From a virus: a DNA stretch of 64,000 nt. Shown here piece after piece: positions 1 through 53,052 of the stretch. The position numbers and the translations under genes were made by a program. Location of the stretch: positions 49,522 through 113,521 of the IMG/VR virus record IMGVR_UViG_3300027763_000036; one strand, 5' to 3'. Every line of letters starts with the position of its first letter. The first letter of the stretch is position 1. The notes under the pieces are model-generated. The model saw only the letters and a list, made by a program, of their open reading frames with translations, did no database searches and was not told the DNA's origin.

Positions 1-879
1 ATATTAGAGGTATGTCATGGTAGAGTAAAACTACCAGATGATTTTTATGTATTTAACTTTGCATTTGTTTGTGGAAATTATGAACAGCATGCAGGTTATG
101 GACCAATGGCATCAGGGACTCATATTATGGAAGTTCCTTATCAAGAAGTTCCATCTACTGTAGATGTATGTGCTCCACCAACAGTAAACTGTAGAACATG
201 TAATTCTAATCCATGTAACCAAACTGCAGCATGTAGTCTTAATCATCCAATAGTAGATCCAATACCTACAGAGTATGATCCTTTAAATCCTTATGGTAAC
301 ACATGTGTTGCTCCTAGAGTATTTATGAACTGTAAAGGAGAAAAATGGGAACTTGTTCAAGTAATGAATAACTCCGGTTCAAGTGTTACTAGAGTTTATA
401 GAGATCTTTTGCCATTAAGAATGAAGGCAAGTCAAGAAATAGAATGTGATTGTCCAAATCTTTATTGGAATGCTGCAAACGAGGGATGGATTAAAGGAGG
501 ATTTTTATTTACAACATTTCAAACAGGAAGAGTATATTTAAACTACCAAGGTCAAATGGAAGATGATAATGGAAACTTAATGGTTCCGGATCATGATCTT
601 TTAAATGAATACTATGAGTATGCACTAAAAGCTAGAATCTTTGAAAACTTATATTTAAATGGAGAGGATGTAGCACAAAGAATGCAACTTGTAGAACAAA
701 GACTTAAAGCTGCAAGAAACAATGCATTAAGTGTAGTTAATACTCCAAACTTTAGAGAGTTAGAGCAAATGTGGTGGACAAATAGAAAAGCTATGTACGG
801 TAAGTACTATTCTATGTTTCAAAGTTATTCACCTAATGCAGGATATTATAGAAATATAACTGGTAATAGAATTATATAA
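1..879 (+). CDS. Tail ring / tail tubular protein (crAss-like ring protein, P22 gp4-like), 5'-truncated by window edge
   Basis: Frame is open from base 1 (ILEVCHGRVKLPDDF...) to the ATG at 106. 'GRVKLPDDF' and 'VYLNYQGQMEDDNGNLMVPDH...YYEYALK' resemble crAss-like ring proteins. Cys-rich insertion; lies immediately upstream of the muzzle-type gene. Confidence 0.65.
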   Translation: MLEVCHGRVKLPDDFYVFNFAFVCGNYEQHAGYGPMASGTHIMEVPYQEVPSTVDVCAPPTVNCRTCNSNPCNQTAACSLNHPIVDPIPTEYDPLNPYGNTCVAPRVFMNCKGEKWELVQVMNNSGSSVTRVYRDLLPLRMKASQEIECDCPNLYWNAANEGWIKGGFLFTTFQTGRVYLNYQGQMEDDNGNLMVPDHDLLNEYYEYALKARIFENLYLNGEDVAQRMQLVEQRLKAARNNALSVVNTPNFRELEQMWWTNRKAMYGKYYSMFQSYSPNAGYYRNITGNRII

Positions 880-3800
880 TGGGTAAAGAAATTCAAAATA
901 CTAGTCAAACAGTAACTAATAGTTTTTCAAAAGGTCTTAATAAAGATACAGACCCTTCATTTGTAGAATCTGGATTGTGGACACATGCTAGAAACATGGT
1001 TAACAATACAGATGAAGGTAACTTAGGTACATTAACTAATGAGGACTCAAACTATCTCTGTGGAACAAGTGGTGAAACCATGCAGGGTGAGAAAGATATT
1101 ATTGGATTAATACATCTCTTTGCTGATAAGTGGGTAGTCTTTACTGTTGCTAATGTTAATGGAAAACCTGTTAACTCTGAGATTGGTTTATATGAAGAAG
1201 ACTTCTGTAGGTATAGACCAATTGTTTCTGCACCATGTTTAAACTTTAGTAATTTACATCTTATAACTGGTGGATCAAGACAGAAGGGAGATTGTAGATG
1301 GGAAGTTTATTGGGTTGATGGAAATAACGTGGATAGGTATATGGATGTTGGTGATCCTAAAACTTGGCCAGATCCTAATTTTGTTTGGGGAGGTTCTGAT
1401 CAATCAGTAGCTGGTGCCAATTATAATTACTATTTAGATAATAATGGAAATACAGTTCTTTGGCCAATAACTGCTTGGGAACAAAAATGTTTACCAACAA
1501 ATTGTCATATATGTTTTGACACTAATCAACTAGACTGTGATAAAATAAGATTAGCATCTCTTGTTAAAACTCCATGTGTAGAATTATCTATTGCACCTGG
1601 TACAGGTACATTAGAAAATGGAACATACTTTGCAATTGTAGCTTATACAATTAATACTCAGAAAGTAACCAACTATTTTTCTCCAAGTAATTTACAACCG
1701 GTATATACTGAAAGAAATTTATCACAAGGATCTTTACAATTAAATTTAGATTTAGATACAGATAACTTTCAGCAGTTTGAACTTGTAATAGTAGCATCTA
1801 TAAATGAAAATGTTATTGCAAAAAAGATTGGATATTATTCTACATCACAAACAACAATTCTATTAGATGATATCCCACTTACATTAGAGACTATTCCATT
1901 AAGTTTAATTACCATTCAGAATCCTGTGTATGAAACATCTGATCAAATGGTTAATGTTAATCAGTACTTATTAAGGATAGCTCCTAAATCTAAATTTGAT
2001 TTTAACTATCAGCCATTAGCAAATTTAATTAATACCGAATGGGTTTCTGTTGAATATCCAGAAGATTATTATATTAAAGGTGGATCAAAGACTGGATATC
2101 TTAGAGATGAAGTATACTCATTCTTTATACGTTGGGTATATAATACAGGAGATAAATCTGCTTCTTATCACATTCCAGGTAGAGCAGCTGAACCATATAC
2201 ATTTGTTGCACCTAATGGAACTACACAAACTTTATTAGACACTGCATCTTATACAGATATAAATAGTTTTGCAGATGACATAAGACTTTGGCAAACTATA
2301 AATACAGCAACTCAAACTGGTGTATTTTTAATTAATAATCCAATATTACCAGATGGAGGAAAAGTATTAGCATTTGGTAAAATGGGATATTGGGAGTCAA
2401 CAGAATTATATCCACCTAATCAACCAGAAGTTTGGAATTCAAGTTCTCAATGTTGGACAGGAACTACAAATCCAAATTATGATTTATGTGGTACACCAAT
2501 AAGACACCATAAGTTTCCTGATAATGCTTTATCATCTGAAACATATCACTTTAGAGTAGACAATGCAAACTTTGTAGCTAATCCTTCTGATGGTAAAAAA
2601 TATATTAGAATCATGAGTGTTAGATTTAATGGAATCATTTATCCAAAAGATAATGATGGAAATCCAATACCAGGAATAGTTGGTTATGAAATTCTAAGAG
2701 GGTCAAGAGAAGGTAATCAAAGTATAGTAGCTAAAGGTATGATTAATAACTTTAGAGATTATGAAATACAAGGTCAGTCAAAAGGTAATAGAAAAGGGTT
2801 GTACGCAAACTATCCATTTAACTGTAGTATTCCTTTAGGTAATACATTGACACCAACTGATCATGATTATAGATTTAATGATCCATTTATTAAACCAGTA
2901 ACTATAAATTCACAAGGAAATGAAACTTTTGTAAATCAGTTTATACCTGAAAATTTATTAACATTTACTTCTCCAGATACAAGTTTTAGAAATCCATTTT
3001 TAAATCAAACTGAGTTAAAAATATATGGAAGTTTAGAAGGAAACTCAACACATGCATTTGTAGTTCCTAATAAACATCCAGAAAATAAATTAATGAGTGA
3101 TGAAGCATTTTATATTTCTGTTATAGTTGGTTTAGGTAATGCTCTTTTAAATTTATTAGGAAAACAAGAAATGCATACACAAGCAACTCCTGATTTTCAA
3201 GCACCTTATCAAAAATATCCACAATGGAATATAGCAGCTGGTCCAACAGGAGGAACAACAGGTGCTACATTTGATTTAGACGCATTTACAGTTAATGCAG
3301 CCTCAAGTACTTATAATAATTATGTAACTCAAATGCAAAATTATTTTACATTGGGTGGACAATTAAATGCAGCATTAACCGGAGCATTAACATTACAGGA
3401 TATTTATGATACAACATCTCAAACATATGCTAATATAGGATTATCTACTCCACAAGTAATCGTAACAGATTATACAGCAGCAACTGTATTTAACAATCTT
3501 GGTTTAAATCCAGTTGTAACTGGAGCTATAAATGTTGCTATACAAATACCCTATTACTTTGCAGAAGGATTTAATACTACACTAAGAGTAATACAAGCAT
3601 TCTTACCATTTAGACAGTATGCATTACAATCTCTTGCCCATGGTTTCTATGCAAGGTTTGTTCCTCCTGTAAATAGTTTCTTAAAAAGATTTAGTTTAAA
3701 GGATGGATTTTATTTAACAGATAGTAATCAAGAAGTTCCTGATTATTTAAATGGCCTTGGTGGATTTGAAAGATATTCAATAAATAATCTTAATAGAACT

Positions 3801-6371
3801 AAGACAGTATTTTTAAGAACTGCTGCACCTAATAATTTAAATCCGCTTACTGCTCCTGTTATTGGTCCAAGATTGGTTGGAACATATGCGGCTGGTGTTT
3901 TACAACCAGGTAACCAAGAAGATAACACATTAATTAATCTTGGTAAAGCTGTATCTGCTTCATTAGGTGGAGGTATGGCGTTTGACAATGAAACAAGATT
4001 TAATAGTTTTATAGCTAATATTGCTAGTCATTATGTTGGATTAAAATATAATGTACAAAATCAATATGGACAATTAGAAAGTATTAAACAAGTTGTTGCT
4101 ACATCATGTGAAGTTAGATTTGATAAAAATAGTATTTATGATCCAGCAACAAATCCTGATGGAGATGTTTCAATTGTAACAACATCAGCTTTTTGTGGTC
4201 CAACTACTAGTCCTACACAAGTTCAACATACTATATTATTACCAACACAACCAATCTTTGGTGGAGATACTTATATAAACAGATTTACAGAAAAGAATAC
4301 AATGCTATTCTTTTACAATTGGTTATATAATCTTCCTGATGGCACTCCTTGGAATTATGCTTTATATAATAATATTCCAACAGCAAGATACTGGATGAAC
4401 TCTCAACCATATTCTAAAGATGAGAATGTATTATTTGGAGGAGGTATTAACCCTTTATCTATAATTCAAGGATTATTTAATAGTAATCCAAACTTTGGTA
4501 CAGGACCAACTCCTAGAGGTTATTATAATTTAGATAATGATAATTATGATAGACAAACCGATCAAGAAACTGGAGCAGGTTCCTTCCCTAGAGGTTATGA
4601 TGGATTCATGTCTGTTAAAAATTCTTATTTCTATCTAGCTAATTCAGGTGTTAGAGATTTCTTTGTAGAGAGTAATGTACTTGTAGATTTTAGATCTCAA
4701 GGAACTTTCCAATATGAACAGCCATATATACCATATCAGTATACAGATATGCGGCAGTTATTTGATATGAATCCAGAAGTAATTACTAAAGGTAACTTCT
4801 ATAACTATGATTACTCATTAAGTGTTACTAAGTTCTTTACACAATATCTTTCTGCAGGATCTTTACAAGGATTAACATATAATCCTTATGTAGCTGAATT
4901 ATGTTTTACATATTATCCTAACAGAGCATTATATTCGTTATATCAAGATGATGAATCATATGACAATAACTGGTTAATTTATTTACCATTAAACTATGTA
5001 CAGTTTAATGATAGAATAACTACAGTTAAACCTGTAGGGATGAGTGGTATGTTATTTACATTTCCAACTACGGGTCCTTTATTCTATCAAGGTGTGGATC
5101 AATTAACTACAAACTTGGGTAAAAAAGTTACTATAGGTGACGGAGGTTTATTTTCTAACCCGCCTTCATCAGCAGCTAATTCAGATGCTCCATTTGAATA
5201 TGGTTCATCACAAAATATTAGATCAGTAATTTATTCTCCCGCAGGACTTTACTATGTATCAATGAATCAAGGAAAGATATTTTCATATGGAGAAGGAATT
5301 AAAGAAATATCTCAGAATGGTCTTAAGTGGTGGTTTACATTATTTTTACCATATAAGCTTACAGAGGACTTCCCAGATTTTCCACATATAGATAATCCAG
5401 TAGCTGGTATTGGTATACAATCAATGTATGATAGCAGAAACTCATTATTATATTTTAGCAAAAAAGATTATCAGTTAAAACCTAACTTAGGTAAAGTAAT
5501 ATATAGTCCTACTATTAACAGATTTATTTATTCTGGTGTTAAATATCAACTAGGAGATCCAGCAATATTTGATGATGCATCTTGGACAGTAAGTTATGAT
5601 CCTAAGATGAATGTGTTTATTAGTTATCATGACTGGCATCCTGATTTAGCTTTCTCATCTAAAGAAACTGTATTTACTGTAAAGAATAATACTATCTGGA
5701 AACACAATGACACATGTACAGATTTTAATAACTATTATGGTATTCAATATCCTTTTGAGATAGAGTATCCTATAAATACTGGTCAATCACCTACAGTTAT
5801 TAAATCATTTGAATATATTCTTGAGGCTTACAGATATTCTCATCTTAATTGTGTAGATCAGTTCCATGTTCTAGATGCAAACTTTAATCAAGCTGTGGTA
5901 TCTAACACAGAACAAGTATCTGGATATTTAAACTTAAATATATTCCCTAAGAACAACATTACTCTTTCACTTGATTATCCAAAACTAAATCAATCTAACT
6001 TATCTTCATTTGATATTTTATTCTCAAAAGAAGAAAACAAATATAGATTCAACCAGTTCTGGGATATTACAAAAGATAGAGGAGAGTTTCCAATAGGATC
6101 AGATTATCCTCCAACAGGACAACTTATTCCTGGAACTACACAGTTATTAGGTAACTATGCAGATCAAGTTATTTGGAATACACAACCTAACGGTTATATC
6201 AAAACTTTAAATGCAAATAACTTGAATTACAATAAACCTGAAATGCAAAGAAAAAGATTTAGACATTATCTTAATTATCTATTCTTGTCAAAACTTGCAA
6301 CACCAGAAGAAAGAGATATTAACTTTATCCTTAAGATAATAAATAGTAAGAATCAAGCATCATATAGATAA
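879..6371 (+). CDS. Tail stabilisation / muzzle protein (crAss-like, P22 gp10-like beta-propeller)
   Basis: 1830 aa, beta-rich. N-terminal 'NSFSKGLNKDTDPS...WTHARN', 'GYLRDEVYSF', 'PIRHHKFP', 'IFGGDTYINRF', C-terminal 'WTVSYDP...SYHDWHPD' are typical of crAss-like muzzle proteins. TAATG-coupled to the ring gene. Confidence 0.7.
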   Translation: MGKEIQNTSQTVTNSFSKGLNKDTDPSFVESGLWTHARNMVNNTDEGNLGTLTNEDSNYLCGTSGETMQGEKDIIGLIHLFADKWVVFTVANVNGKPVNSEIGLYEEDFCRYRPIVSAPCLNFSNLHLITGGSRQKGDCRWEVYWVDGNNVDRYMDVGDPKTWPDPNFVWGGSDQSVAGANYNYYLDNNGNTVLWPITAWEQKCLPTNCHICFDTNQLDCDKIRLASLVKTPCVELSIAPGTGTLENGTYFAIVAYTINTQKVTNYFSPSNLQPVYTERNLSQGSLQLNLDLDTDNFQQFELVIVASINENVIAKKIGYYSTSQTTILLDDIPLTLETIPLSLITIQNPVYETSDQMVNVNQYLLRIAPKSKFDFNYQPLANLINTEWVSVEYPEDYYIKGGSKTGYLRDEVYSFFIRWVYNTGDKSASYHIPGRAAEPYTFVAPNGTTQTLLDTASYTDINSFADDIRLWQTINTATQTGVFLINNPILPDGGKVLAFGKMGYWESTELYPPNQPEVWNSSSQCWTGTTNPNYDLCGTPIRHHKFPDNALSSETYHFRVDNANFVANPSDGKKYIRIMSVRFNGIIYPKDNDGNPIPGIVGYEILRGSREGNQSIVAKGMINNFRDYEIQGQSKGNRKGLYANYPFNCSIPLGNTLTPTDHDYRFNDPFIKPVTINSQGNETFVNQFIPENLLTFTSPDTSFRNPFLNQTELKIYGSLEGNSTHAFVVPNKHPENKLMSDEAFYISVIVGLGNALLNLLGKQEMHTQATPDFQAPYQKYPQWNIAAGPTGGTTGATFDLDAFTVNAASSTYNNYVTQMQNYFTLGGQLNAALTGALTLQDIYDTTSQTYANIGLSTPQVIVTDYTAATVFNNLGLNPVVTGAINVAIQIPYYFAEGFNTTLRVIQAFLPFRQYALQSLAHGFYARFVPPVNSFLKRFSLKDGFYLTDSNQEVPDYLNGLGGFERYSINNLNRTKTVFLRTAAPNNLNPLTAPVIGPRLVGTYAAGVLQPGNQEDNTLINLGKAVSASLGGGMAFDNETRFNSFIANIASHYVGLKYNVQNQYGQLESIKQVVATSCEVRFDKNSIYDPATNPDGDVSIVTTSAFCGPTTSPTQVQHTILLPTQPIFGGDTYINRFTEKNTMLFFYNWLYNLPDGTPWNYALYNNIPTARYWMNSQPYSKDENVLFGGGINPLSIIQGLFNSNPNFGTGPTPRGYYNLDNDNYDRQTDQETGAGSFPRGYDGFMSVKNSYFYLANSGVRDFFVESNVLVDFRSQGTFQYEQPYIPYQYTDMRQLFDMNPEVITKGNFYNYDYSLSVTKFFTQYLSAGSLQGLTYNPYVAELCFTYYPNRALYSLYQDDESYDNNWLIYLPLNYVQFNDRITTVKPVGMSGMLFTFPTTGPLFYQGVDQLTTNLGKKVTIGDGGLFSNPPSSAANSDAPFEYGSSQNIRSVIYSPAGLYYVSMNQGKIFSYGEGIKEISQNGLKWWFTLFLPYKLTEDFPDFPHIDNPVAGIGIQSMYDSRNSLLYFSKKDYQLKPNLGKVIYSPTINRFIYSGVKYQLGDPAIFDDASWTVSYDPKMNVFISYHDWHPDLAFSSKETVFTVKNNTIWKHNDTCTDFNNYYGIQYPFEIEYPINTGQSPTVIKSFEYILEAYRYSHLNCVDQFHVLDANFNQAVVSNTEQVSGYLNLNIFPKNNITLSLDYPKLNQSNLSSFDILFSKEENKYRFNQFWDITKDRGEFPIGSDYPPTGQLIPGTTQLLGNYADQVIWNTQPNGYIKTLNANNLNYNKPEMQRKRFRHYLNYLFLSKLATPEERDINFILKIINSKNQASYR

Positions 6372-9300
6372 TGAAAAAATCTTTTAAAAAATATGAAGTG
6401 GCAGGTTTACCTGGAGGACCAAATGAATTAAAAAGATTCACTAACGGATTTATTATATCTGAGAGAGGTCAATGGGATTATCCCGGACAACCTACAGCAG
6501 TACCAACTCCTTCTGGTAGAATTACTACTGAAGGAGTAGAAGATGATCTAGTGGGTATTGATAATTTAGGTAACACACAATACATGTCTCCTGATAATGA
6601 ATATCAGTTTGAAGGAGATATGGTATATGAAATACCACAAGCAAAAAAAGGAGGAAGCAAGAAACCATCTAAAAAGTTCTCAAAAAGTCTGATGGCTAAG
6701 AATAGATTATTTGCAAAAAATCCTTTACTTAAAAAATCAAAGTCTGTTAAGAATAAAATCTTTGATCCTTATTCCCCATACTTTCAACCAGGAGGAGAAA
6801 CTTATAATCAGTTACCTTCAAGATACGGAGATGCTTTAAAAAACTTTGTGTATCCTGAAGTAGTTGATTCATCTGAAGAAACAGGTTATGATGCAGCATT
6901 AGGGGTTATTAAACAAAATCCAAATGACCCTATTGCAAATGTAAATAATCCTTGGTGGTATGAACATGAGTTAATGCATCATTTACAAAATCAAGCTGGA
7001 GGAATGAGTACATATGGCGCAGTTGGTTTAAGACCAAATCCTTATGTAGCTTCAGATGAAGCAATAGGTTCTTACTATGATAGAAGAGGGTCAGAATTTG
7101 AAACAGAATTAAATAGAATTTTAGAAGAAAATCCAGATATATTAGAAGAAGAAGCATATGCAAGAGCTGAAGAAGATTTATATAACAATCCAACAACTAC
7201 AGAAGGTGAAGCAAGAAACTATGAAGGATACATAGAAGCTGGTAATCCATCTATCTTCCCAAAAAAACAACAAGATGGCGGAATAATTTTAGATCTTACA
7301 GAAGATCGAATAGAAGAATATAGAAAAGGTGGATACATAGTAGAAGAAATAAATGATTATAAAAAAGGTGGTGCATTACTTACTAAGAAAGTAACATGTA
7401 AAAAATGTGGTTGGACATGGGATGCTGCAGATGGTGGTAATGATCTTACTACTTGTCATAAATGTGGTGGTCAAGGATTAATACATGCACAAACTGGAGG
7501 ATATATAAATGACATTTCTATACCTACATTAACTAGAATGCAACCTGGTGGACCAGTTCCTGAATCTACATATACTCCAATTGATCCAAACTTCTTATCT
7601 GCAAATCCTGATACATATTCTCAAATTGTAAATAAACCTGAAGTTACATCAGAAAGACAAGCTTCAGATATTGGTAAATTAAGAGCAGAGTATCGTGATA
7701 AAAATTCAATGGATAAATTTTTAGATGAAAAGAAAAGACAATATTTAAAAAAGAATAAGGGATTAAATAAAGCTGCTGGAGTTACTATGGAAAATTTTCC
7801 AGAAGATGTTCTTCAAAACTTTACAAATGAGTATAATTATAAAACAAATAATTATGCTGTAAATAAACTTGGTAAGAAAGAAGGATGGAATCCTAAAAGA
7901 AGAGGTGAGTGGGTGGATGAATTAACACCGGGAGAAAAAGATGCTGTTGCTGAATCTAAATATGGATCTAAACTACAACCTAGTTATTGGTCAAGATCAT
8001 TAGCTGGTGTACAAGAACTTGGTAATGCAGCAATTAAATTATTACCGGGAAAACAAGGTGATGTCTTAAAATATAATATCCCAGGACTTACTAAAAAGGA
8101 ACAAAAAGAAATAGCAGAATCAAAAATAGGAGCTCTTGAAACTTTAGCTCCAATGGATATACCAGGAGCAGCAATAGCTAATTTAGTTAAGAATACTGGA
8201 TTATCTACAGGATCAGATTACAAAGAACAGGCTAATGCTTTAGCAGGAGAAAAAATGGCTAATGTATCTGATACAGAAGCAATGGCATTTAATCCATTAA
8301 CTTATGCAGGATTAGAGTCTTTACCTGAACTTGGAGTAAACTTAGCAAGAGGTATTGGTAAAGGTGCAAGCAAGCTTGAAAGGTTTGTTAAAAATGCAAG
8401 GGATATGGAGAAAATATCTAAAGCATATAGTCCCAATCTTACAAAAATGGGCTTCTCATTCTCATCATCTAAACCAGCAGTTGATTTTGTAGGACCAATG
8501 AGAGCACCAGCACATGCTGTTAGTGATGTTCTATCAGGTTTGAAAAATAGAGGGACAAAATGGGATAAAGTTGGTGCAAAAGGAGAAGAACTTTTACATC
8601 CTGATATGATTAATTATCATGGAACATATGCTGGAAGACCAATTGTTGAAGTAAGAATGCCAGATGGTACACCAGAGTTTTTTTATAAATCTTCTGGATG
8701 GGCTGGAAAAGAAGGTGCTGGTTTAAAAGGAACTACAGAAGGACAATGGCAAGTATTTGGAGGATTTAGTGACGTACCAAATACTAAAGATTGGTTTATT
8801 AAAGATGCAGGTTATAAAGATTATTATGGTAGTAACACATTTAAAGGTATGGCTGAAAATCTTGATAATGCTTTAATACAAAAGCTTGGTTTTCAAAATA
8901 CTGATGAATTGGATAATGCAATTAATTTTCAAAATAGATTTGGAAATGTAGATTCATACACACCAATAAGAAAATATGGTGGTACAGCCGCTAAATATGG
9001 ATACTCTGTTGGAAATCTTATAAGAAAAGATAAAGGGGGTGCTGTTAGTGGTACTCAAGGTTTAACAGCTGATTTCTCACAGAGACTTACTCAAATGATT
9101 CTAGATGCTAGATCACAAGGTATAGACTTAGGTGTTGGTTCAGGATATAGATCATATGAAAAACAAAAGAGACTTTGGGAACAAGCTCTTAAGAAATATG
9201 GATCTCCTGAGAAAGCAAGAAAATGGGTAGCTCCTCCGGGAGGGTCATTTCATAATAAAGGTCTTGCAGTTGATTTACATTCAAGTGGAAATGCATTAGG

Positions 9301-9775
9301 TAAAGAAAAAAATGCCAAAGCCACAGAATGGGCACATGCTAATGCTAAGAAGTATGGTTTACATTTTAGAATGGGGCATGAGCCTTGGCACATTGAACCT
9401 ATAGAGAAAACTAAATCAAGTTCTGAGAAAGAAAATGAACATGATCATTCAGATCAAGAAGAGTATGAGCAAATGATTGCAGATAAAAATATGGAGTTTG
9501 AGTTAAAACAAAAAGAATTAGCAGAAAGAGAAAGAAAGTTACATGATGATGATTATAGTAATTGGGAACCTGCTAAAAAAGAAGTTGTAGATCCAAGACA
9601 AGAAATGTTAGATGATTATGCAAAGGTGATTGCTCCAAGCAATCAAAACCTTTTTGAACTCTATACAGCTAATCTTCAAGGTCAAATGAAAAAGGGAGGA
9701 TTTATTATGGAATTAACTGATAAAGAAATTGAAAGATATAGAAAAGGAGGATTTATTATAGAAGAACTTGATTAA
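6371..9775 (+). CDS. Multidomain virion protein: HExxH zincin-like module, Zn ribbon, unknown domain and C-terminal M15B (VanY-like) peptidoglycan peptidase
   Basis: HELMH (6965-6979) plus TEGEAR; CKKC...CHKC; SGYRS..Q...APPGGSFHNKGLAVD...KYG...EPWH (about 9140-9391) is the M15B signature. Modules are separated by xxxGG motifs. Confidence 0.75.
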   Translation: MKKSFKKYEVAGLPGGPNELKRFTNGFIISERGQWDYPGQPTAVPTPSGRITTEGVEDDLVGIDNLGNTQYMSPDNEYQFEGDMVYEIPQAKKGGSKKPSKKFSKSLMAKNRLFAKNPLLKKSKSVKNKIFDPYSPYFQPGGETYNQLPSRYGDALKNFVYPEVVDSSEETGYDAALGVIKQNPNDPIANVNNPWWYEHELMHHLQNQAGGMSTYGAVGLRPNPYVASDEAIGSYYDRRGSEFETELNRILEENPDILEEEAYARAEEDLYNNPTTTEGEARNYEGYIEAGNPSIFPKKQQDGGIILDLTEDRIEEYRKGGYIVEEINDYKKGGALLTKKVTCKKCGWTWDAADGGNDLTTCHKCGGQGLIHAQTGGYINDISIPTLTRMQPGGPVPESTYTPIDPNFLSANPDTYSQIVNKPEVTSERQASDIGKLRAEYRDKNSMDKFLDEKKRQYLKKNKGLNKAAGVTMENFPEDVLQNFTNEYNYKTNNYAVNKLGKKEGWNPKRRGEWVDELTPGEKDAVAESKYGSKLQPSYWSRSLAGVQELGNAAIKLLPGKQGDVLKYNIPGLTKKEQKEIAESKIGALETLAPMDIPGAAIANLVKNTGLSTGSDYKEQANALAGEKMANVSDTEAMAFNPLTYAGLESLPELGVNLARGIGKGASKLERFVKNARDMEKISKAYSPNLTKMGFSFSSSKPAVDFVGPMRAPAHAVSDVLSGLKNRGTKWDKVGAKGEELLHPDMINYHGTYAGRPIVEVRMPDGTPEFFYKSSGWAGKEGAGLKGTTEGQWQVFGGFSDVPNTKDWFIKDAGYKDYYGSNTFKGMAENLDNALIQKLGFQNTDELDNAINFQNRFGNVDSYTPIRKYGGTAAKYGYSVGNLIRKDKGGAVSGTQGLTADFSQRLTQMILDARSQGIDLGVGSGYRSYEKQKRLWEQALKKYGSPEKARKWVAPPGGSFHNKGLAVDLHSSGNALGKEKNAKATEWAHANAKKYGLHFRMGHEPWHIEPIEKTKSSSEKENEHDHSDQEEYEQMIADKNMEFELKQKELAERERKLHDDDYSNWEPAKKEVVDPRQEMLDDYAKVIAPSNQNLFELYTANLQGQMKKGGFIMELTDKEIERYRKGGFIIEELD

Positions 9776-9825
9776 ACTTATTAAGTTTAAACACTATGTT
9801 TTTATTTATTATATTTATATTATAG
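9772..9825 (+). promoter_or_regulatory. Putative late promoter: palindrome TTAAACTTA-T-TAAGTTTAA plus TATATTTATATTATAG
   Basis: Perfect 9-bp inverted repeat at 9772-9790 and AT box at 9810-9825. The same arrangement and spacing recur at 15740-15794. Confidence 0.55.
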
Positions 9826-9834
9826 CGCGTTATA

Positions 9835-12800
9835 ATGAAAAGAAAAGTAAGAATTTATAAAGACCCATTTGGGCAAGGTGGTTATATAAACAAGACTGCT
9901 CAGTGGTTAAGAAAAGCACAAGAAGGTGCTGAAACAGGGATGACTCCTGTAACTGCTGGTATCATGCAACAAATGCAACCTGCTCAACAGCAAATGATGC
10001 AACAGCAACAACCACAACAAGATCCACAAGAACAAATCTTACAAGTTGTAGTTGCATTAGCTCAACAAGGAAAAGGAGAAGATGAGATTAAAGATTACTT
10101 GTTAACTAATGTTTATGGTTTTGAGGAAGGGTCTCAAGAGTATGCTGCATATGAGCCACAAATATTAGACTTTGTATCTGCTGTGTTTGAAAGATCTGCA
10201 CCAGAGGAAGAAGAACAAGCAGTAACAAATGAACCTATAGAAGATATTGTTGCAGATACAAGTGTTGAAGATACATCAGAAGAAGATGGTAACTATGATC
10301 AAATGATCAATGACATTATTTATGATGATGAGGATCAAGAAGCTAGATATGGAGGTGTTCCAAATAAAAGATCTTATGTCAACAAATTAATAAGACAACT
10401 TAAGAAAGCTCAGAAAGGGGATCAAGTAGAAGAAGCTAACACAGCTAATGTAAGAGGAACTGAAGATAACCCTACAAGTGATGCTCCTGGAAATAAAAAT
10501 CCATTTATCTCAGGAGTAAAAGGACAAGCTGAGAATCATTTCTATAAACAACAAGCGGAGCAAATGTATAACAATCAGTTTGGTCAAGGTATGCCTCAAG
10601 CAGGTATGTCTCAACCACAAGATGATATGGATTATGCTCAACGCGGAGGTTGGAGAATGAGAAGAGCTAATAGAAAAATGTTTGGTACTCCAAATTTACC
10701 AATGGGAGTTACATCATCTAAATATTCTTTTGGTCCATTGGGTGGAGTTAGATCTGCAGAGATGCAGTTTAATCCACTTATGATGGCTTCTATGTTTCCT
10801 ATGATGACATTCCCAGGAATGGGAGGAAGTTCATCATGGGGATATAATGAACCTTACAGAAAAACTACAAAAGGAAGACTTGTTACTGAAAAGATTGCAA
10901 GTACTGTAAATAATAAATCTATAGAAGATGTAGCTAATGATACTGATTCTGATGCAGCTAATAAATCTGCAGAACCAAAAAAAGATACTGCAATTCCAAA
11001 TGCAGATGGGACAGTTACAGTAGATACTAGTGGAGAAGGTGCTTCTAGCACTACTCCAGGAACAACTCCAAATACTGGTGGCGGTACTGGGCCAGTTCCT
11101 ATTGACGGTGCAAGACAAGCCATGGAGCTTAGAAATAAGAAAGATAAATGGGGTAGATCGCGAGCTGATAAATGGTATGGTTTTGATCCAGCTACAAAAA
11201 AATGGACACTTACTGCTGCACCAGACTGGTATAAAGAACCATCTAAGAAAAGTAGATGGAGTAATGTTACTATGAAAAAAGATTCTTGGGGAAGAAATGA
11301 AGATAGCAAGTGGTATGGTTATGATTCTAAAAAGAAAAAATATACTGAGGGTCCAAATAAAGGAAAAACAACAACACAAGTAAAAAATAAACTAGAAGAT
11401 CAAAAAAATAAAGAGCTTATTAAAAAATTTCCAAAACTAAAAGAGCAAATAGAATATGACTCATGGTATAAAAATGCTAGTGGTACTGATAGAGTATTAG
11501 GATTATTAGGTTTTGGTCCAAGTGATCCAAGTTTTCGTGGTGGTTTTACAGATGATGATGCTCTATCATATGTAACACCAATGGGAATTAAAGGAGCAAC
11601 TGAAGCATTTAAATTAACTCCCGCAGCAGAAAGAATTTTAAGGGGTGAAAGATTAAATATTGGTTCAGGAATGGCTGCTAGTTTTAGAGATCCTAAAGCC
11701 CAACAAGCTGCAAATGCTATTTATAAAAACTTTTACAAGTCAGTTAGATCTGCACCAAAAGGTTTACCAGAACCTCCTCCAGGAACACAATTAAAATTTA
11801 ATTTTGCAGCCGGTGGATTTGTAAATAATCCTATGCAAGATCAATTTGGAAATCTTCAGAAGTTTATATATGGTGATCAGGTAGATGATCAAATGCTGGA
11901 AAATTTATATCAACCACCAATTAATCAATCTGACTTAGACTACTCTGATTCTGAAGATCCATCAGATCCATACTTTAAAAAACATGGTGGTCTTCACAGA
12001 TTTGATGGAACTACTAATAGTCAAACTAATCCTACAAATGCTCCAAAAACATATACTCAAGAAGAGTTAGACAAGATGCTTGCTGAAAAACAAAAGTCTT
12101 GGGAAACTGATTATCAAAAAAAATATAATCAGCAGATGCAAGGTCAACAACAAATGATGCAAGGGTTTGGTGGTTATGGTGCAGCAGGTTATAATCCTTA
12201 TGATAGTTATTCTGCTTGGAGTTCAAGAGGTAACTATGGAGGATTTGGTCCTATGGCAAGTACTGGTCTTTTAGGAGCTGCTGGTAATTTAATTAAAGGT
12301 TTTGGTAGAGGTCCAAGTACATATGGTCCTGCAGGAAATCCATTGCAATATGCAGCTACTGCTGCCCAAATTACCAAGTCAGGAATGCTACCTACAGGAA
12401 TGAAATACTCTAAAGAAAAAGCAGAAGGTTTCCTTGGTAAATTAGGATTGAAGAATGATAAAGTTTGGACTCTTGATTATGCTACACCAGAACAAATAAA
12501 AGCTGGTGCAATACCTGGTGCACAAGGAACTGCACCTGGTACTAATCAAAATACTTCAAACATGTCCGGTAGAGATAGAAGAATTAATAGAAGAGATGAG
12601 AGATTAAATAGAAATACTCCTGCTGAAGCTGATGCTTATCAATTTACAGGTACTCTTACCGGATCTCCAGTAACATATGCAAAAGAGCCTTTATCTAATG
12701 AAGAGATGTTAAAGTCTCAAGGAAAAATGTGGGATGAAAAACAACAGAAATGGGTTACTGGTTCTGCACCAACAAAAAATACTGAGATGGCATATGGTGG

Positions 12801-13425
12801 ATTTATTCCAGATTATATGGCTTATGGTGGAGACTTGCCTACTGCTGATAATGGAATTAATTTTTCTACCGTGTCTTATGAGGGTAATCCAGTTATAGGT
12901 GTTGAAGAAAGTCCAACATGGGGAGCAATGCAATATTTCAATCAAAATCAGAATATTAAAAATCCTGATGCTGATAAGTTTAAAAATTATACCATAGAAC
13001 CAGAAGGTGAAGATTTAACAGATTGTACATATGAACAAAAACTAGATCCAACAAGTAAGTGTTATGAACCTCAAACTGCTCAGTTAAAAATTAAAGAGGA
13101 AAAGGGCAAAATGGATCCTACTAAACTTTCTAGAGGTGTGTTAGATTTTGGAGCTAATCTTGCAGATGCTCAAGATTATATGACTGAAAGAAGAACTAAG
13201 TATATTCCTGGAATGACAGAGTTTGCAATGGGTGAAAAACAAGATGCAGAAGAAAGAATAAATAAAGGTGAGTGGAATGCAAGAACTGGTAAAGAAGGTA
13301 TACAAGGTTTTGAAGGTGTAATAAGAAAGGGTGGTTCTATTAAAAGTAAAAAATCAAAAGCTAGTGGTCATAAAATAAACATAAGTGACTTTCAAGATTT
13401 AATGAGATTGGCTGGTTTAAAATAA
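9835..13425 (+). CDS. Low-complexity internal virion (cargo) protein with xxxGG repeats
   Basis: 1196 aa with Q/M-, G- and acidic-rich tracts, two KD(K/S)WGR..KWYG(F/Y)D repeats, and motifs ARYGG, AQRGG, FAAGG, KKHGG, MAYGG x2, IRKGG. Located in the virion gene block. Confidence 0.55.
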   Translation: MKRKVRIYKDPFGQGGYINKTAQWLRKAQEGAETGMTPVTAGIMQQMQPAQQQMMQQQQPQQDPQEQILQVVVALAQQGKGEDEIKDYLLTNVYGFEEGSQEYAAYEPQILDFVSAVFERSAPEEEEQAVTNEPIEDIVADTSVEDTSEEDGNYDQMINDIIYDDEDQEARYGGVPNKRSYVNKLIRQLKKAQKGDQVEEANTANVRGTEDNPTSDAPGNKNPFISGVKGQAENHFYKQQAEQMYNNQFGQGMPQAGMSQPQDDMDYAQRGGWRMRRANRKMFGTPNLPMGVTSSKYSFGPLGGVRSAEMQFNPLMMASMFPMMTFPGMGGSSSWGYNEPYRKTTKGRLVTEKIASTVNNKSIEDVANDTDSDAANKSAEPKKDTAIPNADGTVTVDTSGEGASSTTPGTTPNTGGGTGPVPIDGARQAMELRNKKDKWGRSRADKWYGFDPATKKWTLTAAPDWYKEPSKKSRWSNVTMKKDSWGRNEDSKWYGYDSKKKKYTEGPNKGKTTTQVKNKLEDQKNKELIKKFPKLKEQIEYDSWYKNASGTDRVLGLLGFGPSDPSFRGGFTDDDALSYVTPMGIKGATEAFKLTPAAERILRGERLNIGSGMAASFRDPKAQQAANAIYKNFYKSVRSAPKGLPEPPPGTQLKFNFAAGGFVNNPMQDQFGNLQKFIYGDQVDDQMLENLYQPPINQSDLDYSDSEDPSDPYFKKHGGLHRFDGTTNSQTNPTNAPKTYTQEELDKMLAEKQKSWETDYQKKYNQQMQGQQQMMQGFGGYGAAGYNPYDSYSAWSSRGNYGGFGPMASTGLLGAAGNLIKGFGRGPSTYGPAGNPLQYAATAAQITKSGMLPTGMKYSKEKAEGFLGKLGLKNDKVWTLDYATPEQIKAGAIPGAQGTAPGTNQNTSNMSGRDRRINRRDERLNRNTPAEADAYQFTGTLTGSPVTYAKEPLSNEEMLKSQGKMWDEKQQKWVTGSAPTKNTEMAYGGFIPDYMAYGGDLPTADNGINFSTVSYEGNPVIGVEESPTWGAMQYFNQNQNIKNPDADKFKNYTIEPEGEDLTDCTYEQKLDPTSKCYEPQTAQLKIKEEKGKMDPTKLSRGVLDFGANLADAQDYMTERRTKYIPGMTEFAMGEKQDAEERINKGEWNARTGKEGIQGFEGVIRKGGSIKSKKSKASGHKINISDFQDLMRLAGLK

Positions 13426-13431
13426 AGAAAG

Positions 13432-15744
13432 ATGAACAAAAGACTAACAAGACTTCCTAAAGCAAGAACTGGATACCAAGTAAGAGGTTCATTAGCAAAT
13501 GATGTACCTGCTTTTGGTGGAGCAGATTATAATGCTTACATGGGTATAGCAAGTCCACAGGTAAGAAAAACTATGGGAGCTGTGCCTAGAGAAGAAGCAA
13601 ATTTAGAAGCTGAAGGTGGAGAAACATTAGTAGGAGATCTTGATGGCTCTACATTCCCATCTTTCTTTCATATAAAAGGACCAAGACACTCTGCTGGTGG
13701 AGTTCCTATGAACTTACCAGATGACACATTTATCTTCAGTGATACAGCATCTATGAAGATAACTGATCCTAAGATCTTAAAGATGTTTAATAAGTCACCT
13801 AAGAAAGGTGGTTATACTCCAGCAGAACTATCTAAAGGTTATGACATAAATAAATATAGAAAAACTTTGCAAGATCCTGAAGCCAATAAGATGGAAAAGA
13901 AGACTGCAGAGATGATGATTAAAAACTATGTTATGAAGCTTGGTGCATTAGCTATTGCACAAGAATCTAAAAAAGGTTTTCCTCAAGGTATCCCTGTTAT
14001 AGCTAAACCTTATATGGAGGCTAATAAAATTACAGAAGCTGATTTAATGCCTGAAGTTGCTAAACAACAAGAAGAGCAACAACAGATGATGGCTCAACAA
14101 CAAGGTGCACCACAAGAACAGATGGGAGAAGCACCTGAGCAAATGCCATCTGGAGAACCAGTAGCACAACCTTCTATGGAGGAAGATATGCAAATGCCAC
14201 CACAGATGTCACCTGAGCAAATGCAACAAGCACCAATGGCTATGTATGGTATGGAGATGGGAGGCTATGATATGCCATTTGCTGCATATGGTATGGCTAT
14301 GGGAGCTAATTCTAGTAACTATATGGGAAGGACTAAAAACATTGTTGGTAGTGGTCCATTCTTAAATCGTGAGATGGCTAAAGAAGGACTTATTGTTGGT
14401 GGTATGTTAGGTATGCCGGTAATAATGAGTGGTGGAGGTTACATAGATAAGTATCCAGGTGGTGGACAAAAGAAAACTAAGGAACAATTGCAAAAAGAAA
14501 TTGATGCAAAAAAATATAAGGACAACACTAAAAAGGTTAAGGAATTTGAAAAAGATGTTGATGTTTTTGAAGTAGATGGTAAAAAGATTGGAGCAAGAGG
14601 TACATCAGATGAACAAAATAAAAATTTAACATATAACAAAAGAAAAAATCCTTATGTGTATGATAAAGGTAAAGAAGAAGCCTATATAAAAAGCCTTTGT
14701 GAAAGAATGAAAAATGGAGACTTAAAAGGTTATACTGTTGATGATCTTGTAAAAAAGAATTTAATTGTTGCAGCTGCAGGTTCAAAATTAGCAGGATGTG
14801 AAACTAAATCTGAAAGTGATGTAACAGAATTCTTTGAATTAGAAGATACTCCAGAAACTCCAGGTGAAGTAGAAAAATGTTATTGTACAGATCCAGAAAC
14901 TGGTAAAGAAGTTGAAGTAGCTCTTACTAATGGTAAGTGTGAATGTGAAGAAGAAGTAAGTGGTGGCGGAGGTTATGGAGCTCAAGCTCAACCTTGGCAA
15001 ATACCAATGCAATGGACTCCGCAAGATGAAAGAAATCTAGCAACAGCTATGAGAACTAGAACTGGTATTGAATATCCTACAGCTATGACATATCAGTATC
15101 CTGAAGTAGAACTAGCTAAAGAAGAATGGTTATCTAAAGTACAAGGTCTTCAGGGACAGGCTGCTAAGAATTTAGATGTGTTATCTGGAACAGCAGGGTC
15201 ATCTAATGCTAAACAAGCTACAGCAGCTTCATTACAAGGAGATGTTGCAGAAGGTATTGTAAATGCTATTGCTAGTACTCAAGCAAGAAATGTTGGTACA
15301 GAGAATCAAGAAAGATTGACAAACTATCAAGGTGATGTAGCTGAAGGATTAAATAGACAAGGTATACTTAACCAGTATATGGATAAAGTAGGTGCAGTTG
15401 AAAATAATTATAGGGGAGAGTTAAATGCTAAAGATGCCTTAACTGCTCAAATGATTAATCAAGGAGATACTAATGCAGCTAATATATACAATCTACAAAC
15501 TGAACAATACGGTATAGATCCAAGAACTGGTAAACAAATATTTAAGACTGGTAAACCAATAGAACCAGAACAACAAGGACAAGATATGATTGCATATGCT
15601 AAAGAACTAGAGGCTTCACATTTACCAGAGGATGTTCAAGAATTAATTCTAAAACAAAGATTCTCTAGGTATGGAGGCCCTGTCTTACAAATGGGTGGAA
15701 TGGTATATGGAGACATGGTTTATCCTTTCTATTACTATGAATAA
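13432..15744 (+). CDS. Internal virion cargo protein (crAss cargo protein 1-like)
   Basis: 'NLEAEGGET...IKGPRHSAGGVP...FIFSD' matches a domain I recognise from crAss-like internal proteins. Q/M-rich linker, small Cys cluster, helical Q/N/A-rich C-terminus. Confidence 0.6.
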   Translation: MNKRLTRLPKARTGYQVRGSLANDVPAFGGADYNAYMGIASPQVRKTMGAVPREEANLEAEGGETLVGDLDGSTFPSFFHIKGPRHSAGGVPMNLPDDTFIFSDTASMKITDPKILKMFNKSPKKGGYTPAELSKGYDINKYRKTLQDPEANKMEKKTAEMMIKNYVMKLGALAIAQESKKGFPQGIPVIAKPYMEANKITEADLMPEVAKQQEEQQQMMAQQQGAPQEQMGEAPEQMPSGEPVAQPSMEEDMQMPPQMSPEQMQQAPMAMYGMEMGGYDMPFAAYGMAMGANSSNYMGRTKNIVGSGPFLNREMAKEGLIVGGMLGMPVIMSGGGYIDKYPGGGQKKTKEQLQKEIDAKKYKDNTKKVKEFEKDVDVFEVDGKKIGARGTSDEQNKNLTYNKRKNPYVYDKGKEEAYIKSLCERMKNGDLKGYTVDDLVKKNLIVAAAGSKLAGCETKSESDVTEFFELEDTPETPGEVEKCYCTDPETGKEVEVALTNGKCECEEEVSGGGGYGAQAQPWQIPMQWTPQDERNLATAMRTRTGIEYPTAMTYQYPEVELAKEEWLSKVQGLQGQAAKNLDVLSGTAGSSNAKQATAASLQGDVAEGIVNAIASTQARNVGTENQERLTNYQGDVAEGLNRQGILNQYMDKVGAVENNYRGELNAKDALTAQMINQGDTNAANIYNLQTEQYGIDPRTGKQIFKTGKPIEPEQQGQDMIAYAKELEASHLPEDVQELILKQRFSRYGGPVLQMGGMVYGDMVYPFYYYE

Positions 15745-51873: not shown

Positions 51874-53052
51874 TTATAGTTCTAATTTAATTACATGACC
51901 TGGTAAATCTTCATTCATATGTGATCTCTCTGATAAAACCCACAGGACACGTCCTTTTGGTTTTACAGATGTATAACACTCACCATCAGTAAAATACACC
52001 AGGCTTGTATATTTTTTTTGGTTAGCATTATAATAATCTAGGACTGGATCAAACTCAGTCCCACCTCTACCTTTTACATTTAATTCATTCTTACCTTTGT
52101 ATTCTTCTATAGAATTAATACTAGTATCACATTGAACTATTGTAATATCTACTCCAGCTTTATAGATATGATGTATCTCATTCATAAACTCAGTTAACTC
52201 TGCATTACTTACAGAACCTGAAGTATCAATGGCCAACAACATATGCTGTTTCATTTTAATTTTAAGGCCAGGATTTTCATCATACCTTCTATTTTCTTTT
52301 CTTCTAATCTTCTTAGTAAATACTTTAGTACTTGTACCAGAAAATCTTCTCACATAACTTCTCCAATCAAACTTAGGTCTAACTATTTCTTCAATAATTA
52401 TAACACCTTCTATCTCACCTGGAACATTCCCGCGCTTCTTAATAGTTTGTTCTTTAGCATCTGATAAAACTTTTTGTAATTGCTTCTCAATTAGTTTTTT
52501 CTCAGCTTCACTAAGATCTTCAAACTCTTCCCATGTACTATGATCAGGAATATTTCCGCTGTCTATGTTGTCTAGCAACTTATCCATCTCTTCATTTCCA
52601 CAAGTACCATCCTTGTCCTTCTCATCTTTAAGCTGTTGTAATTTATCATAATAATATCTACAACCTGCTTTAATATCAAGATCAAGATCTTCATAGTTAT
52701 TTATATCTATACCTCCATCTGGCAAATATTCTGGATCAATATACTGATTGATCTCCATGTCCATTGCAACATTAGCAAGTTTCTTGTCCCTAAAAGAACC
52801 AAAACTTACTAGATGTCCAAAGGCAATATGCAATAACTCATGCTTGAGTAATCCCATTTGATGTTTCTCACTAAGACTTGCCCAAAACTCTTCATTGATA
52901 GCCAACTGATAGTTGATACCATTCTTACTTACACCTGCCGTAGGAAGATCTTTTCTCCATATCTTATTAAGCATAATAAGAAAGAACCCATAATAGGGCT
53001 CTTTTAACATTAGCTCTTTACTAATTTTACTTAGACTCTGCTGTTTGTCCAT
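51874..53052 (-). CDS. DUF2201-type metallopeptidase-like + vWA domain protein
   Basis: HELLH motif; MIDAS DTSGS; 'GRGGTEF', 'YFTDG'. Confidence 0.88.
   Translation of the reverse strand: MDKQQSLSKISKELMLKEPYYGFFLIMLNKIWRKDLPTAGVSKNGINYQLAINEEFWASLSEKHQMGLLKHELLHIAFGHLVSFGSFRDKKLANVAMDMEINQYIDPEYLPDGGIDINNYEDLDLDIKAGCRYYYDKLQQLKDEKDKDGTCGNEEMDKLLDNIDSGNIPDHSTWEEFEDLSEAEKKLIEKQLQKVLSDAKEQTIKKRGNVPGEIEGVIIIEEIVRPKFDWRSYVRRFSGTSTKVFTKKIRRKENRRYDENPGLKIKMKQHMLLAIDTSGSVSNAELTEFMNEIHHIYKAGVDITIVQCDTSINSIEEYKGKNELNVKGRGGTEFDPVLDYYNANQKKYTSLVYFTDGECYTSVKPKGRVLWVLSERSHMNEDLPGHVIKLEL

Follow-up and report, generated by a model that had tools for sequence, protein, structure and literature searches.

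The stretch of viral DNA analyzed here (the window) comprises the last 64 kb of a 113.5-kb uncultured, 97%-complete IMG/VR record of a crAss-like phage, IMGVR_UViG_3300027763_000036, and the features of interest are the Gly-Gly (GG) motifs of three consecutive proteins, P0001 (1134 aa), P0002 (1196 aa), and P0003 (770 aa), referred to below as the cargo proteins. The favored interpretation, to which about an even chance is given, sees P0001 as a mosaic "polyvalent" cargo protein in which GGs form uncut hinge or adaptor joints between modules. The preliminary description of this DNA had placed GG motifs at module boundaries in the three proteins and had proposed either polyprotein processing or a packaging signal. 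The three open reading frames (ORFs) at 6371-9775, 9835-13425, and 13432-15744, all on the plus strand, were present as described there, and every pentapeptide and coordinate listed for them was confirmed.

GG was found at 15.2 per 1000 aa in the three cargo proteins compared to 3.8 per 1000 aa in the rest of the 113-kb proteome. Since the cargo proteins are about 10% Gly, shuffles within each protein were used as the null. Against these, 47 GGs were observed for 31.7 expected (p = 0.0024), and the enrichment of plain GG in the individual proteins was only modest, with p values of 0.047 (P0001), 0.27 (P0002), and 0.0075 (P0003). For the extended forms, 19 [QKR]xGG were observed for 5.8 expected, 15 GGx[IVF] for 3.5, and 6 [FYMW][QKR]xGG for 0.8. 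GG[FY][IV] occurred eight times in the cargo proteins and four times in the rest of the proteome, which holds ten times more sequence. No GG enrichment was found in the muzzle and giant proteins encoded by the neighboring genes. The signal sits in the sequence context and position of the GGs, not in plain GG. The comparison with proteome and composition showed the motif to be nonrandom, the extended forms being above shuffles and specific to the cargo proteins.

The relation of the GGs to module exchange was apparent from relatives of P0001. A search with its first 145 residues gave 71 proteins with the P0001 N terminus at 80-96% identity, ranging from 632 to 1968 aa, and 62 distinct architectures were counted on this one constant N terminus. 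The same gene block was present in eight viral contigs, where the P0001 homologues were 606 to 1713 aa in length. The P0001 family is hyper-mosaic. When its members were cut after each GG and the pieces were clustered, the same pieces returned in different orders and with different neighbors. The ...SPYFQxGG peptide was followed by at least 10 different modules and the ...SVGNLIRKxxGG peptide by at least 4, while the module starting E-Q-D-A-M-N-A-M-M was preceded by at least 6 different GG-terminated peptides. The payload families found among the relatives were VanY, SLT lysozyme, ART-PolyVal, and a weak DUF6782 (zincin-like), besides a HAD-like DxDxT motif. Two of the homologues (L003, 10001-14938; L007, 10001-15142) carried alternative payloads between the same joints, namely, SLT/lysozyme, ART-PolyVal (ADP-ribosyltransferase), a DUF6782-like zincin, and a module starting E-I-V-S-F-D-F-D-D-T-L (HAD phosphatase DxDxT).

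The positions of the seams were assessed in 62 nonredundant P0001 relatives, where a break was called abrupt if identity was 70% or more on one flank and could not be recovered on the opposite flank. This abrupt-junction test was used in place of the ends of ungapped BLAST blocks, which gave a weaker breakpoint signal because small indels end such blocks too. Block ends were within 5 residues of a GG in 427 of 753 cases (null mean 70 and maximum 93 in 500 randomizations), as were block starts in 275 of 458 (null mean 42 and maximum 59, again in 500 randomizations), corresponding to 57-60% of abrupt breakpoints near a GG compared to about 9% by chance. GG was also the most enriched dipeptide at breakpoints, being present in 588 of 1032 windows around them for 94 expected (z of about 53), and 148 of the 274 distinct junction types (about 54%) were near a GG. 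Since the breakpoints concentrate at GG, it was concluded that GG marks the seams of module exchange. Seams without GG also occur, such as the recurrent one after the VanY core (...HIEPIE/KSKSSS). In the P0002 and P0003 families, most GGs were conserved down to about 40% identity (homologues at 40-60%), and insertions of 100-280 aa finished in ...GG. The invariant columns of a 46-sequence P0001 alignment all fell at aa 108-141, except for G889. The GG positions are thus related to domain borders in homologues, whereas the preliminary description had named a lack of such a relation as grounds for refutation.

P0001 itself carries 17 GGs, and its modules, all on the plus strand, are as follows. 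The constant N-terminal region (aa 1-142; 6371..6796), which is the part 80-96% identical in the 71 proteins, ends in ...SPYFQPGG, the first variable seam. A zincin-like HExxH module (aa 143-304; 6797..7282) lies between FQPGG and QQDGG, with HELMH at aa 199 and acidic residues downstream of it. This module gave no sequence match in Pfam or PDB; homologues showed weak DUF6782 matches below the cut-off, and it transfers as a single unit with the homologue in the related locus L001 (modules I+J). The first copy of a mini-domain (7259..7363; hidden Markov model [HMM] score, 59.9) holds QQDGG and YRKGG. It is followed by a Zn-ribbon module (aa 335-377; 7373..7501) between YKKGG and AQTGG, assigned from two CxxC motifs in the sequence and weak zinc-ribbon Pfam matches (E of about 0.01). 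The linker peptide YINDISIPTLTRMQPGG (7502..7552) is a recurrent "ISVPSLTRMxxGG" seam that precedes an inserted payload and is found as module D in six homologues. Payload modules without a family match (aa 395-871; 7553..8983) come next; these are mostly helical, modeled with low confidence by AlphaFold2 (AF2), and end in ...RKYGG. The following linker peptide, ...YGYSVGNLIRKDKGG (8984..9040), is found again in L002, L003, and L007 as well as elsewhere in the family, with at least four different modules after it. The VanY/M15 peptidoglycan peptidase module (9041..9415) matched Pfam PF02557 at aa 898-1008 (E=8e-21), with 74.7 bits for a gathering cut-off of 25. Behind the VanY core, at aa 1016-1102 (9416-9676), lies a spacer rich in acidic residues and His (...SSSEKENEHDH...), with a long helix predicted to follow. 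The second mini-domain copy (9677..9772; HMM score, 60.0) forms the extreme C terminus and holds MKKGG and a second YRKGG, the last GG being 7 residues before the end of the protein. As proposed, GGs flank the HExxH module (143-304) and the Zn ribbon (335-377) and mark where VanY/M15 begins on its N-terminal side (from 891). Some do not mark a boundary: PPGGS lies in the VanY core, QNQAGG in the HExxH module, a CxxCGG knuckle in the Zn ribbon, and YRKGG in the mini-domain.

The mini-domain accounts for 6 of the 17 GGs of P0001, which lie inside it or at its edge and include QQDGG, YRKGG, YKKGG, MKKGG, and the second YRKGG, five motifs that are on the preliminary description's list of eleven for P0001. 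It is about 27 residues long and consists of a hydrophobic strand, L-[TD]-D-x-E-I-x-x-Y-x-K, GG, and [YFW]-I-[IV]-E-[ED]-phi. Of 62 family members, 55 had one to three copies, which makes 108 copies altogether. Searching 1.84 billion proteins with a 35-position profile (A2) gave 781 cluster representatives at E <= 0.001, of which 257 reached E <= 1e-10, with clusters counted at 50% identity. The 142 new top matches had two to four copies each; a copy was at the extreme C terminus in 117 and the N terminus was P0001-like in 110. Within the family, a mini-domain C terminus of the P0001 type was found in about two-thirds, and about a third end in a different module. Two copies usually bracket the payload. 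In minimal members the copies are in tandem, joined by ...ISVPSLTRMxxGG, and larger members have the payload inserted behind this peptide. Diverged copies had QG, NG, SG, or AG in place of the inner GG and retained G-[YFW]-I-V-E. The AF2 model of a 105-aa tandem member showed strand-helix-(GG)-strand twice, with predicted local distance difference test (pLDDT) values of 65-75 in the repeats and 60 overall. A Foldseek search with this model gave no match at E <= 0.001, the weak rows being mostly ferredoxin-like and not significant, and no Pfam or PHROGs model was found for the mini-domain. Based on the model and the sequence pattern, the GG of the mini-domain is predicted to be a structural turn. 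Four further loci encode a mini-domain protein directly behind a muzzle homologue (35-47% identity), and in L015 and L016 the mini-domain is on two consecutive cargo genes. The mini-domain is a candidate cargo handle.

The assignment of P0001-P0003 as cargo proteins was deduced from gene context. The tail ring-1 protein gene (1-879; Pfam CrAss_Ring_1) is directly upstream of the muzzle protein gene (879..6371, plus strand; Pfam crAss_MUZ, E=6e-28), which is followed by P0001 (first cargo protein), P0002 (second), P0003 (third), and then ORFs of 1040, 2498, 4438, and 1183 aa. This matches the order in crAss001, where the muzzle gp44 is followed by the cargo proteins gp45 and gp46 and by the virion RNA-polymerase giants gp47, gp49, and gp50. 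From this shared order of ring, muzzle, cargo, and giants, P0001-P0003 are deduced to be the positional counterparts of the crassvirus cargo (ejection) proteins, and the identification of the muzzle gene anchors this deduction. Muzzle homologues at 35-80% identity also precede all P0001-like genes of the related loci L001-L008 and L013-L016. P0001-P0003 are therefore most likely carried in the phage particle and injected, their location in the virion being inferred from this context. Among cultured phages, the Cellulophaga phages phi17:2 and phi4:1 are closest when judged by the muzzle protein (about 27% identity). The positional counterparts in phi17:2, gp041 and gp042, are annotated as "virion structural protein" and "tail protein," and a tblastn search of cultured phages with P0001 gave only VanY-domain matches. 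P0002 is Q/M/G/Y-rich and of low complexity, with [AR][YF]GG and KAQxG motifs, and matched a PHROG annotated as "scaffolding" (E = 8e-5) over a Q-rich stretch. In P0003, an RLPKARTG leader is present at the N terminus, and ...SRYGGPVLQMGG is conserved close to the C terminus. Tracts rich in Q/M/P and in G/Y/F, reminiscent of prion-like or FG-like sequences, were noted in P0002 at aa 43-67 (9960-10035) and aa 766-830 (12130-12330), and a similar tract in P0003 at aa 211-287 (14060-14290).

The residues around the GGs are not random. Among 171 distinct GG contexts of the P0001 family, P5 was F/Y/W/M in 34% (12% expected), P4 was Q/K/R in 50% (18% expected), with hydrophobic residues there in just 15%, and P2' was hydrophobic in 49% (28% expected). 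Two flavors of the extended motif were distinguished. The QxGG / phi-[QKR]-x-GG flavor was observed 5 times in P0001 for 0.4 expected, 5 times in phi17:2 gp041/gp042 for 0.7 expected, and 12 times in the cargo genes of L015, which represents a separate crAss-like lineage, for 1.8 expected. The [AR][YF]GG flavor was observed 5 times in P0002 and P0003 for 0.2 expected and 4 times in crAss001 gp45 for 0.1 expected. In the phages compared, both flavors were restricted to the first cargo proteins behind the muzzle, and neither was found in the muzzle or the polymerase-type giants. A further motif, [PRK][KQ]A[KQR]xG, had four occurrences in P0001-P0003 and none in the remainder of the 113-kb proteome, and it was found at residues 9-15 of several different cargo proteins. 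Different cargo proteins start with a basic leader of the similar form M-[KR]-[KR]-x-[KR]-[IV]-..-L-P-K-A-[QR]-x-G, and this PKAQxG-type leader may serve in N-terminal targeting. The places of the leader motif are 13432-13480 (P0003 aa 1-16), 9835-9930 (the P0002 N terminus), and 6635-6655 (P0001 aa 89-95) in the window, and 13332-, 15701-, and 17879- in L015.

According to the favored interpretation, P0001 would be composed of a constant N terminus followed by modules that fold independently and vary from member to member (zincin-like, Zn ribbon, helical, and VanY), connected via a small set of conserved adaptors ending in [FYM]-[QK]-x-Gly-Gly. An uncut GG would break secondary structure and provide a hinge that insulates the folding of the neighboring modules, and any left-hand piece could be fused to any right-hand piece. 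Such joints would tolerate any neighbors, which would account for the combinatorial seams. They would suit a chain kept in an extended form that passes through the portal and the tail channel, and some GGs would be turns in the paired mini-domain framing the payload. Several points weigh against this interpretation. The residues before the GG are conserved across distant lineages (QxGG in phi17:2 and L015, [AR][YF]GG in gp45), and since a passive hinge needs no conserved residues there, something probably recognizes these peptides; this conservation, which a passive hinge does not explain, keeps the cleavage and docking explanations discussed below in play. The linker peptides are the best-conserved parts of P0001, which is unusual for flexible linkers. 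AF2 modeling of the whole of P0001 from the 46-sequence mosaic alignment gave a mean pLDDT of 43 and was useless for placing domain borders. Zincin-like domains have been proposed to auto-process the polyvalent chain in which they lie (PMC5512222). Finally, the evidence from crAss001 gp45 described below is limited to a single folded domain in the virion and does not bear on events after ejection.

If P0001-P0003 were true polyproteins, [FYM][QK]xGG and [AR][YF]GG would be cleavage sites, cut after or just before the GG by the zincin-like module in cis or by a phage or host protease in trans, in the capsid or after ejection, and the enzymes would be freed. An extended, sequence-specific motif exactly at the seams and conserved across lineages is consistent with this, and adenain (C5), the African swine fever virus protease pS273R (C48/Ulp1-type; site GG-X), and ubiquitin-like protein proteases cleave after GG. 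Adenain, however, needs a hydrophobic P4, and P4 is polar (Q/K) at the joints. In Pfam searches of the whole 97%-complete genome, Peptidase_S78, S77, S49, and ClpP (the prohead types), C48 and C5 (clan CE), and C39 were all without a match; for clan CE this applies to PF00770 and PF02902, C57 not being among the families searched. One C39 lead, of 11 bits (E = 0.02) at the C terminus of the 2498-aa protein, was rejected, as the last 299 residues, with one Cys close to the terminus and one His, provide no catalytic Cys/His pair. The remaining candidates were zincin-like: the HExxH motifs of P0001 and of the 4438-aa protein, a 148-aa protein from the first half of the genome, and a DUF2201_N metallopeptidase with a VWA-like domain (51874..53052, minus strand; PF13203, E=4e-17; PF09967, E=1e-16; PF18894, E=1e-6). 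The window has no free-standing protease candidate besides the last, whose gene adjoins a MoxR-like AAA gene (50693-51862, minus strand); the same pair is annotated in crAss001, with gp77 as the "metalloprotease." The earlier statement that no GG-specific protease is visible thus extends, for the GG-type and prohead families searched, to the whole genome, but it overlooked the zincin-like module of P0001 and the DUF2201_N protein. That polyvalent proteins are processed by zincin peptidases has been proposed, and P1 DdrB is processed (PMC5512222). Nonetheless, a non-VanY HExxH was found in only about half of the P0001 family, and some members with typical GG joints, such as P0045 and P0058, have no HExxH at all. 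Cuts in the VanY core, the mini-domain, and the Zn knuckles would destroy function, the last GG would free only 7 residues, and GG degenerates to xG in diverged mini-domains. Together with the course of gp45 through three of its GGs (see below), these data argue against polyprotein processing at GG as proposed in the preliminary description, and cleavage is considered rather unlikely.

The available data on a comparable protein in the virion are those for crAss001 gp45. By cryo-electron microscopy (cryo-EM; PDB 7QOG and others), short segments of gp45 were seen bound to ring, muzzle, and portal; the protein was described as one chain that extends from tail barrel to capsid, presumably with threading and ejection in the N-to-C direction (PMC10172136). 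Residues 425-552 were reported as resolved, and mass-spectrometry peptides were reported from a stretch between resolved segments (PMC10172136). The text of Bayfield et al. makes no mention of proteolysis, cleavage, or a protease (PMC10172136). In the gp45 sequence (MH675552), the range 425-552 starts at the A of AFGG and contains the GGs at 427, 434, and 447; if the chain is continuous, as the reported range implies, the bonds at these GGs are intact in the virion. The crAss001 virion gel has bands at 85 and 100 kDa, near the 90.8 kDa predicted for full-length gp45, although the published text does not assign bands to proteins. Both observations, and the interpretation of gp45 as a span from tail to capsid, speak against cleavage in the particle. 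A further explanation is docking or loading, whereby the GG adaptors, the PKAQxG leader, and the mini-domain would bind the portal, tail rings, muzzle, or capsid interior and would load and position the cargo, the GG being part of the epitope or merely its end. In keeping with docking, the gp45 segment at 214-245 starts four residues after AYGG and the portal-bound domain ends seven residues before FAYGG, so that, with the AFGG at 425, [AR][YF]GG was within 10 residues of three of four segment borders at tail ring and portal (p of about 0.002 by simulation, post hoc and with a small n). When all GGs were counted, no significant association with gp45 segment borders was found (p = 0.18-0.26), and the motifs are mostly outside the resolved gp45 density. 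The confinement of the motifs to cargo proteins, the leader absent from the rest of the proteome and recurring at residues 9-15, the mini-domain on two consecutive cargo genes in L015/L016, and its C-terminal place in 117 of 142 matches would all fit a tag. Since about a third of the P0001 family ends otherwise, the C-terminal position of the mini-domain is not obligatory. The packaging alternative of the preliminary description thus receives indirect support, and docking as the principal role of the motifs is judged improbable. By far the least probable explanation is that the motifs have no function and are by-products of Gly-rich low-complexity linkers or of DNA recombination hot spots. The Gly content of about 10%, the Q/M/G/Y-rich low-complexity tracts of P0002 and P0003, and the failure of plain GG in P0002 to exceed shuffles are compatible with it, but chance was rejected for the extended motifs by composition-matched shuffles, by the conservation of GGs in homologues at 40-60% identity, and by the rank of GG among breakpoint dipeptides. 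An explanation at the DNA level failed, as the Gly codons at GG sites showed the same GGT/GGA mix as other Gly codons and the joints did not share long stretches of identical DNA: in the window, the linker repeats were only 70-79% identical as DNA, and alternative joint partners had only about 6-12 nt of homology in common. The motif signal is at the protein level, and a chance or DNA-level cause is largely excluded.

Several known systems resemble the arrangement proposed here, in which P0001 is a mosaic chain with uncut joints. The likeness of gp45 to the cargo proteins of the window is that it is the first gene behind the muzzle, has 12.6% Gly and 21 GGs, and shares the [AR][YF]GG motif, present four times, with P0002/P0003; it differs in having neither enzyme modules nor the mini-domain, and its paper is silent on the motif (PMC10172136). 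Homology was not detected: P0001-P0003 gave only E >= 0.4 with gp45 by BLASTP (a comparison that did not cover gp46), and hhalign probabilities for the P0002 and P0003 families were 0.6% and 0.2%, leaving a likeness at the motif level only. Polyvalent proteins are phage or plasmid polypeptides with 2-15 functionally unrelated domains in a highly variable architecture, and a zincin-like MPTase hub is present in about 36% of them (PMC5512222). P0001, with VanY, HExxH, and Zn ribbon, and its relatives, with SLT, ART-PolyVal, DUF6782, and HAD-like domains, have this multidomain character and share with polyvalent proteins the combination of unrelated enzymes (peptidoglycan hydrolases, ART, and putative zincin-like peptidases) on one chain, in P0001 presumably also codelivered with DNA (Iyer et al. 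2017, PMC5512222). The description of that class has no GG joints, adaptor peptides, paired mini-domain, or constant N terminus behind a muzzle gene, and the words "linker" and "glycine" are absent from its full text (PMC5512222). Podovirus ejection proteins of the T7 gp16 and P22 gp4/gp20 class are likewise internal, partly unfolded for passage through a narrow channel, mosaic, and equipped with peptidoglycan-degrading domains, but they have few fixed domains, no combinatorial cassettes, and no reported conserved GG joints (PMC8954989).

Short peptides at the exact exchange point of variable modules are a feature of polymorphic toxins, as with the demarcation motifs VENN in CdiA and PxxxxDPxGL in Rhs. 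Those toxins have one seam before a single C-terminal toxin, and the Rhs seam is autoproteolytic, whereas P0001 has many seams per protein and interior exchange. The placing of GG at a functional boundary is shared with GG-protease and C39 systems, and the amphipathic helix with GG behind it (ELTDKEIERYRKGG) is reminiscent of double-glycine leaders. The differences are that no such protease of the C5, C48, or C39 families is encoded, that P4 is polar in the P0001 family, and that the hydrophobic register of the helix before the GG is shifted by one residue compared to bacteriocin leaders.

Polyvalent proteins, crassvirus cargo proteins, and mosaicism of phage proteins at the domain level have all been described before. 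No description was found in the papers searched of the GG joint grammar, its two flavors in gp45 and the Cellulophaga phages, the PKAQxG leader, or the paired mini-domain. A bolder proposal is that cargo throughout a broad crAss-like clade obeys a peptide grammar (leader, adaptors at every seam, and paired mini-domain) read by a partner, the strongest form being that the joints are cut after ejection; this is regarded as doubtful. If true, the zincin modules or a new GG- or Q-x-G-G-specific protease would cut, and the virion would deliver a true polyprotein yielding free enzymes in the host. The matter bears on the loading, storage, and injection of cargo in Crassvirales, which are among the most abundant phages known. 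A conserved joint grammar would explain the free swapping of injected enzymes evident from 62 architectures on one N terminus, and the GG joints would offer a simple rule for locating module borders in giant phage proteins, thousands of which lack annotation. The cultured phages crAss001 and phi17:2/phi4:1 share the motif flavors, which makes the cut-or-uncut question testable on existing material.

Two further observations concern the surroundings of the cargo genes. The 4438-aa ORF (26427-39743) contains a 2OG-Fe(II) oxygenase domain at aa 3696-3919 (E=2e-7), a weak DprA-like match, and its HExxH at aa 854, and appears to be an unusually large virion protein of the polyvalent type. Shine-Dalgarno (SD)-like AAAGGAGG strings were considered as an explanation of the motifs and dismissed as irrelevant because gene starts here lack an SD; none was seen upstream of 6371, 9835, 13432, or 15806. 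AT-rich, TATA-like strings (...TATATTATAG...) were present upstream of 9835 and 15806.

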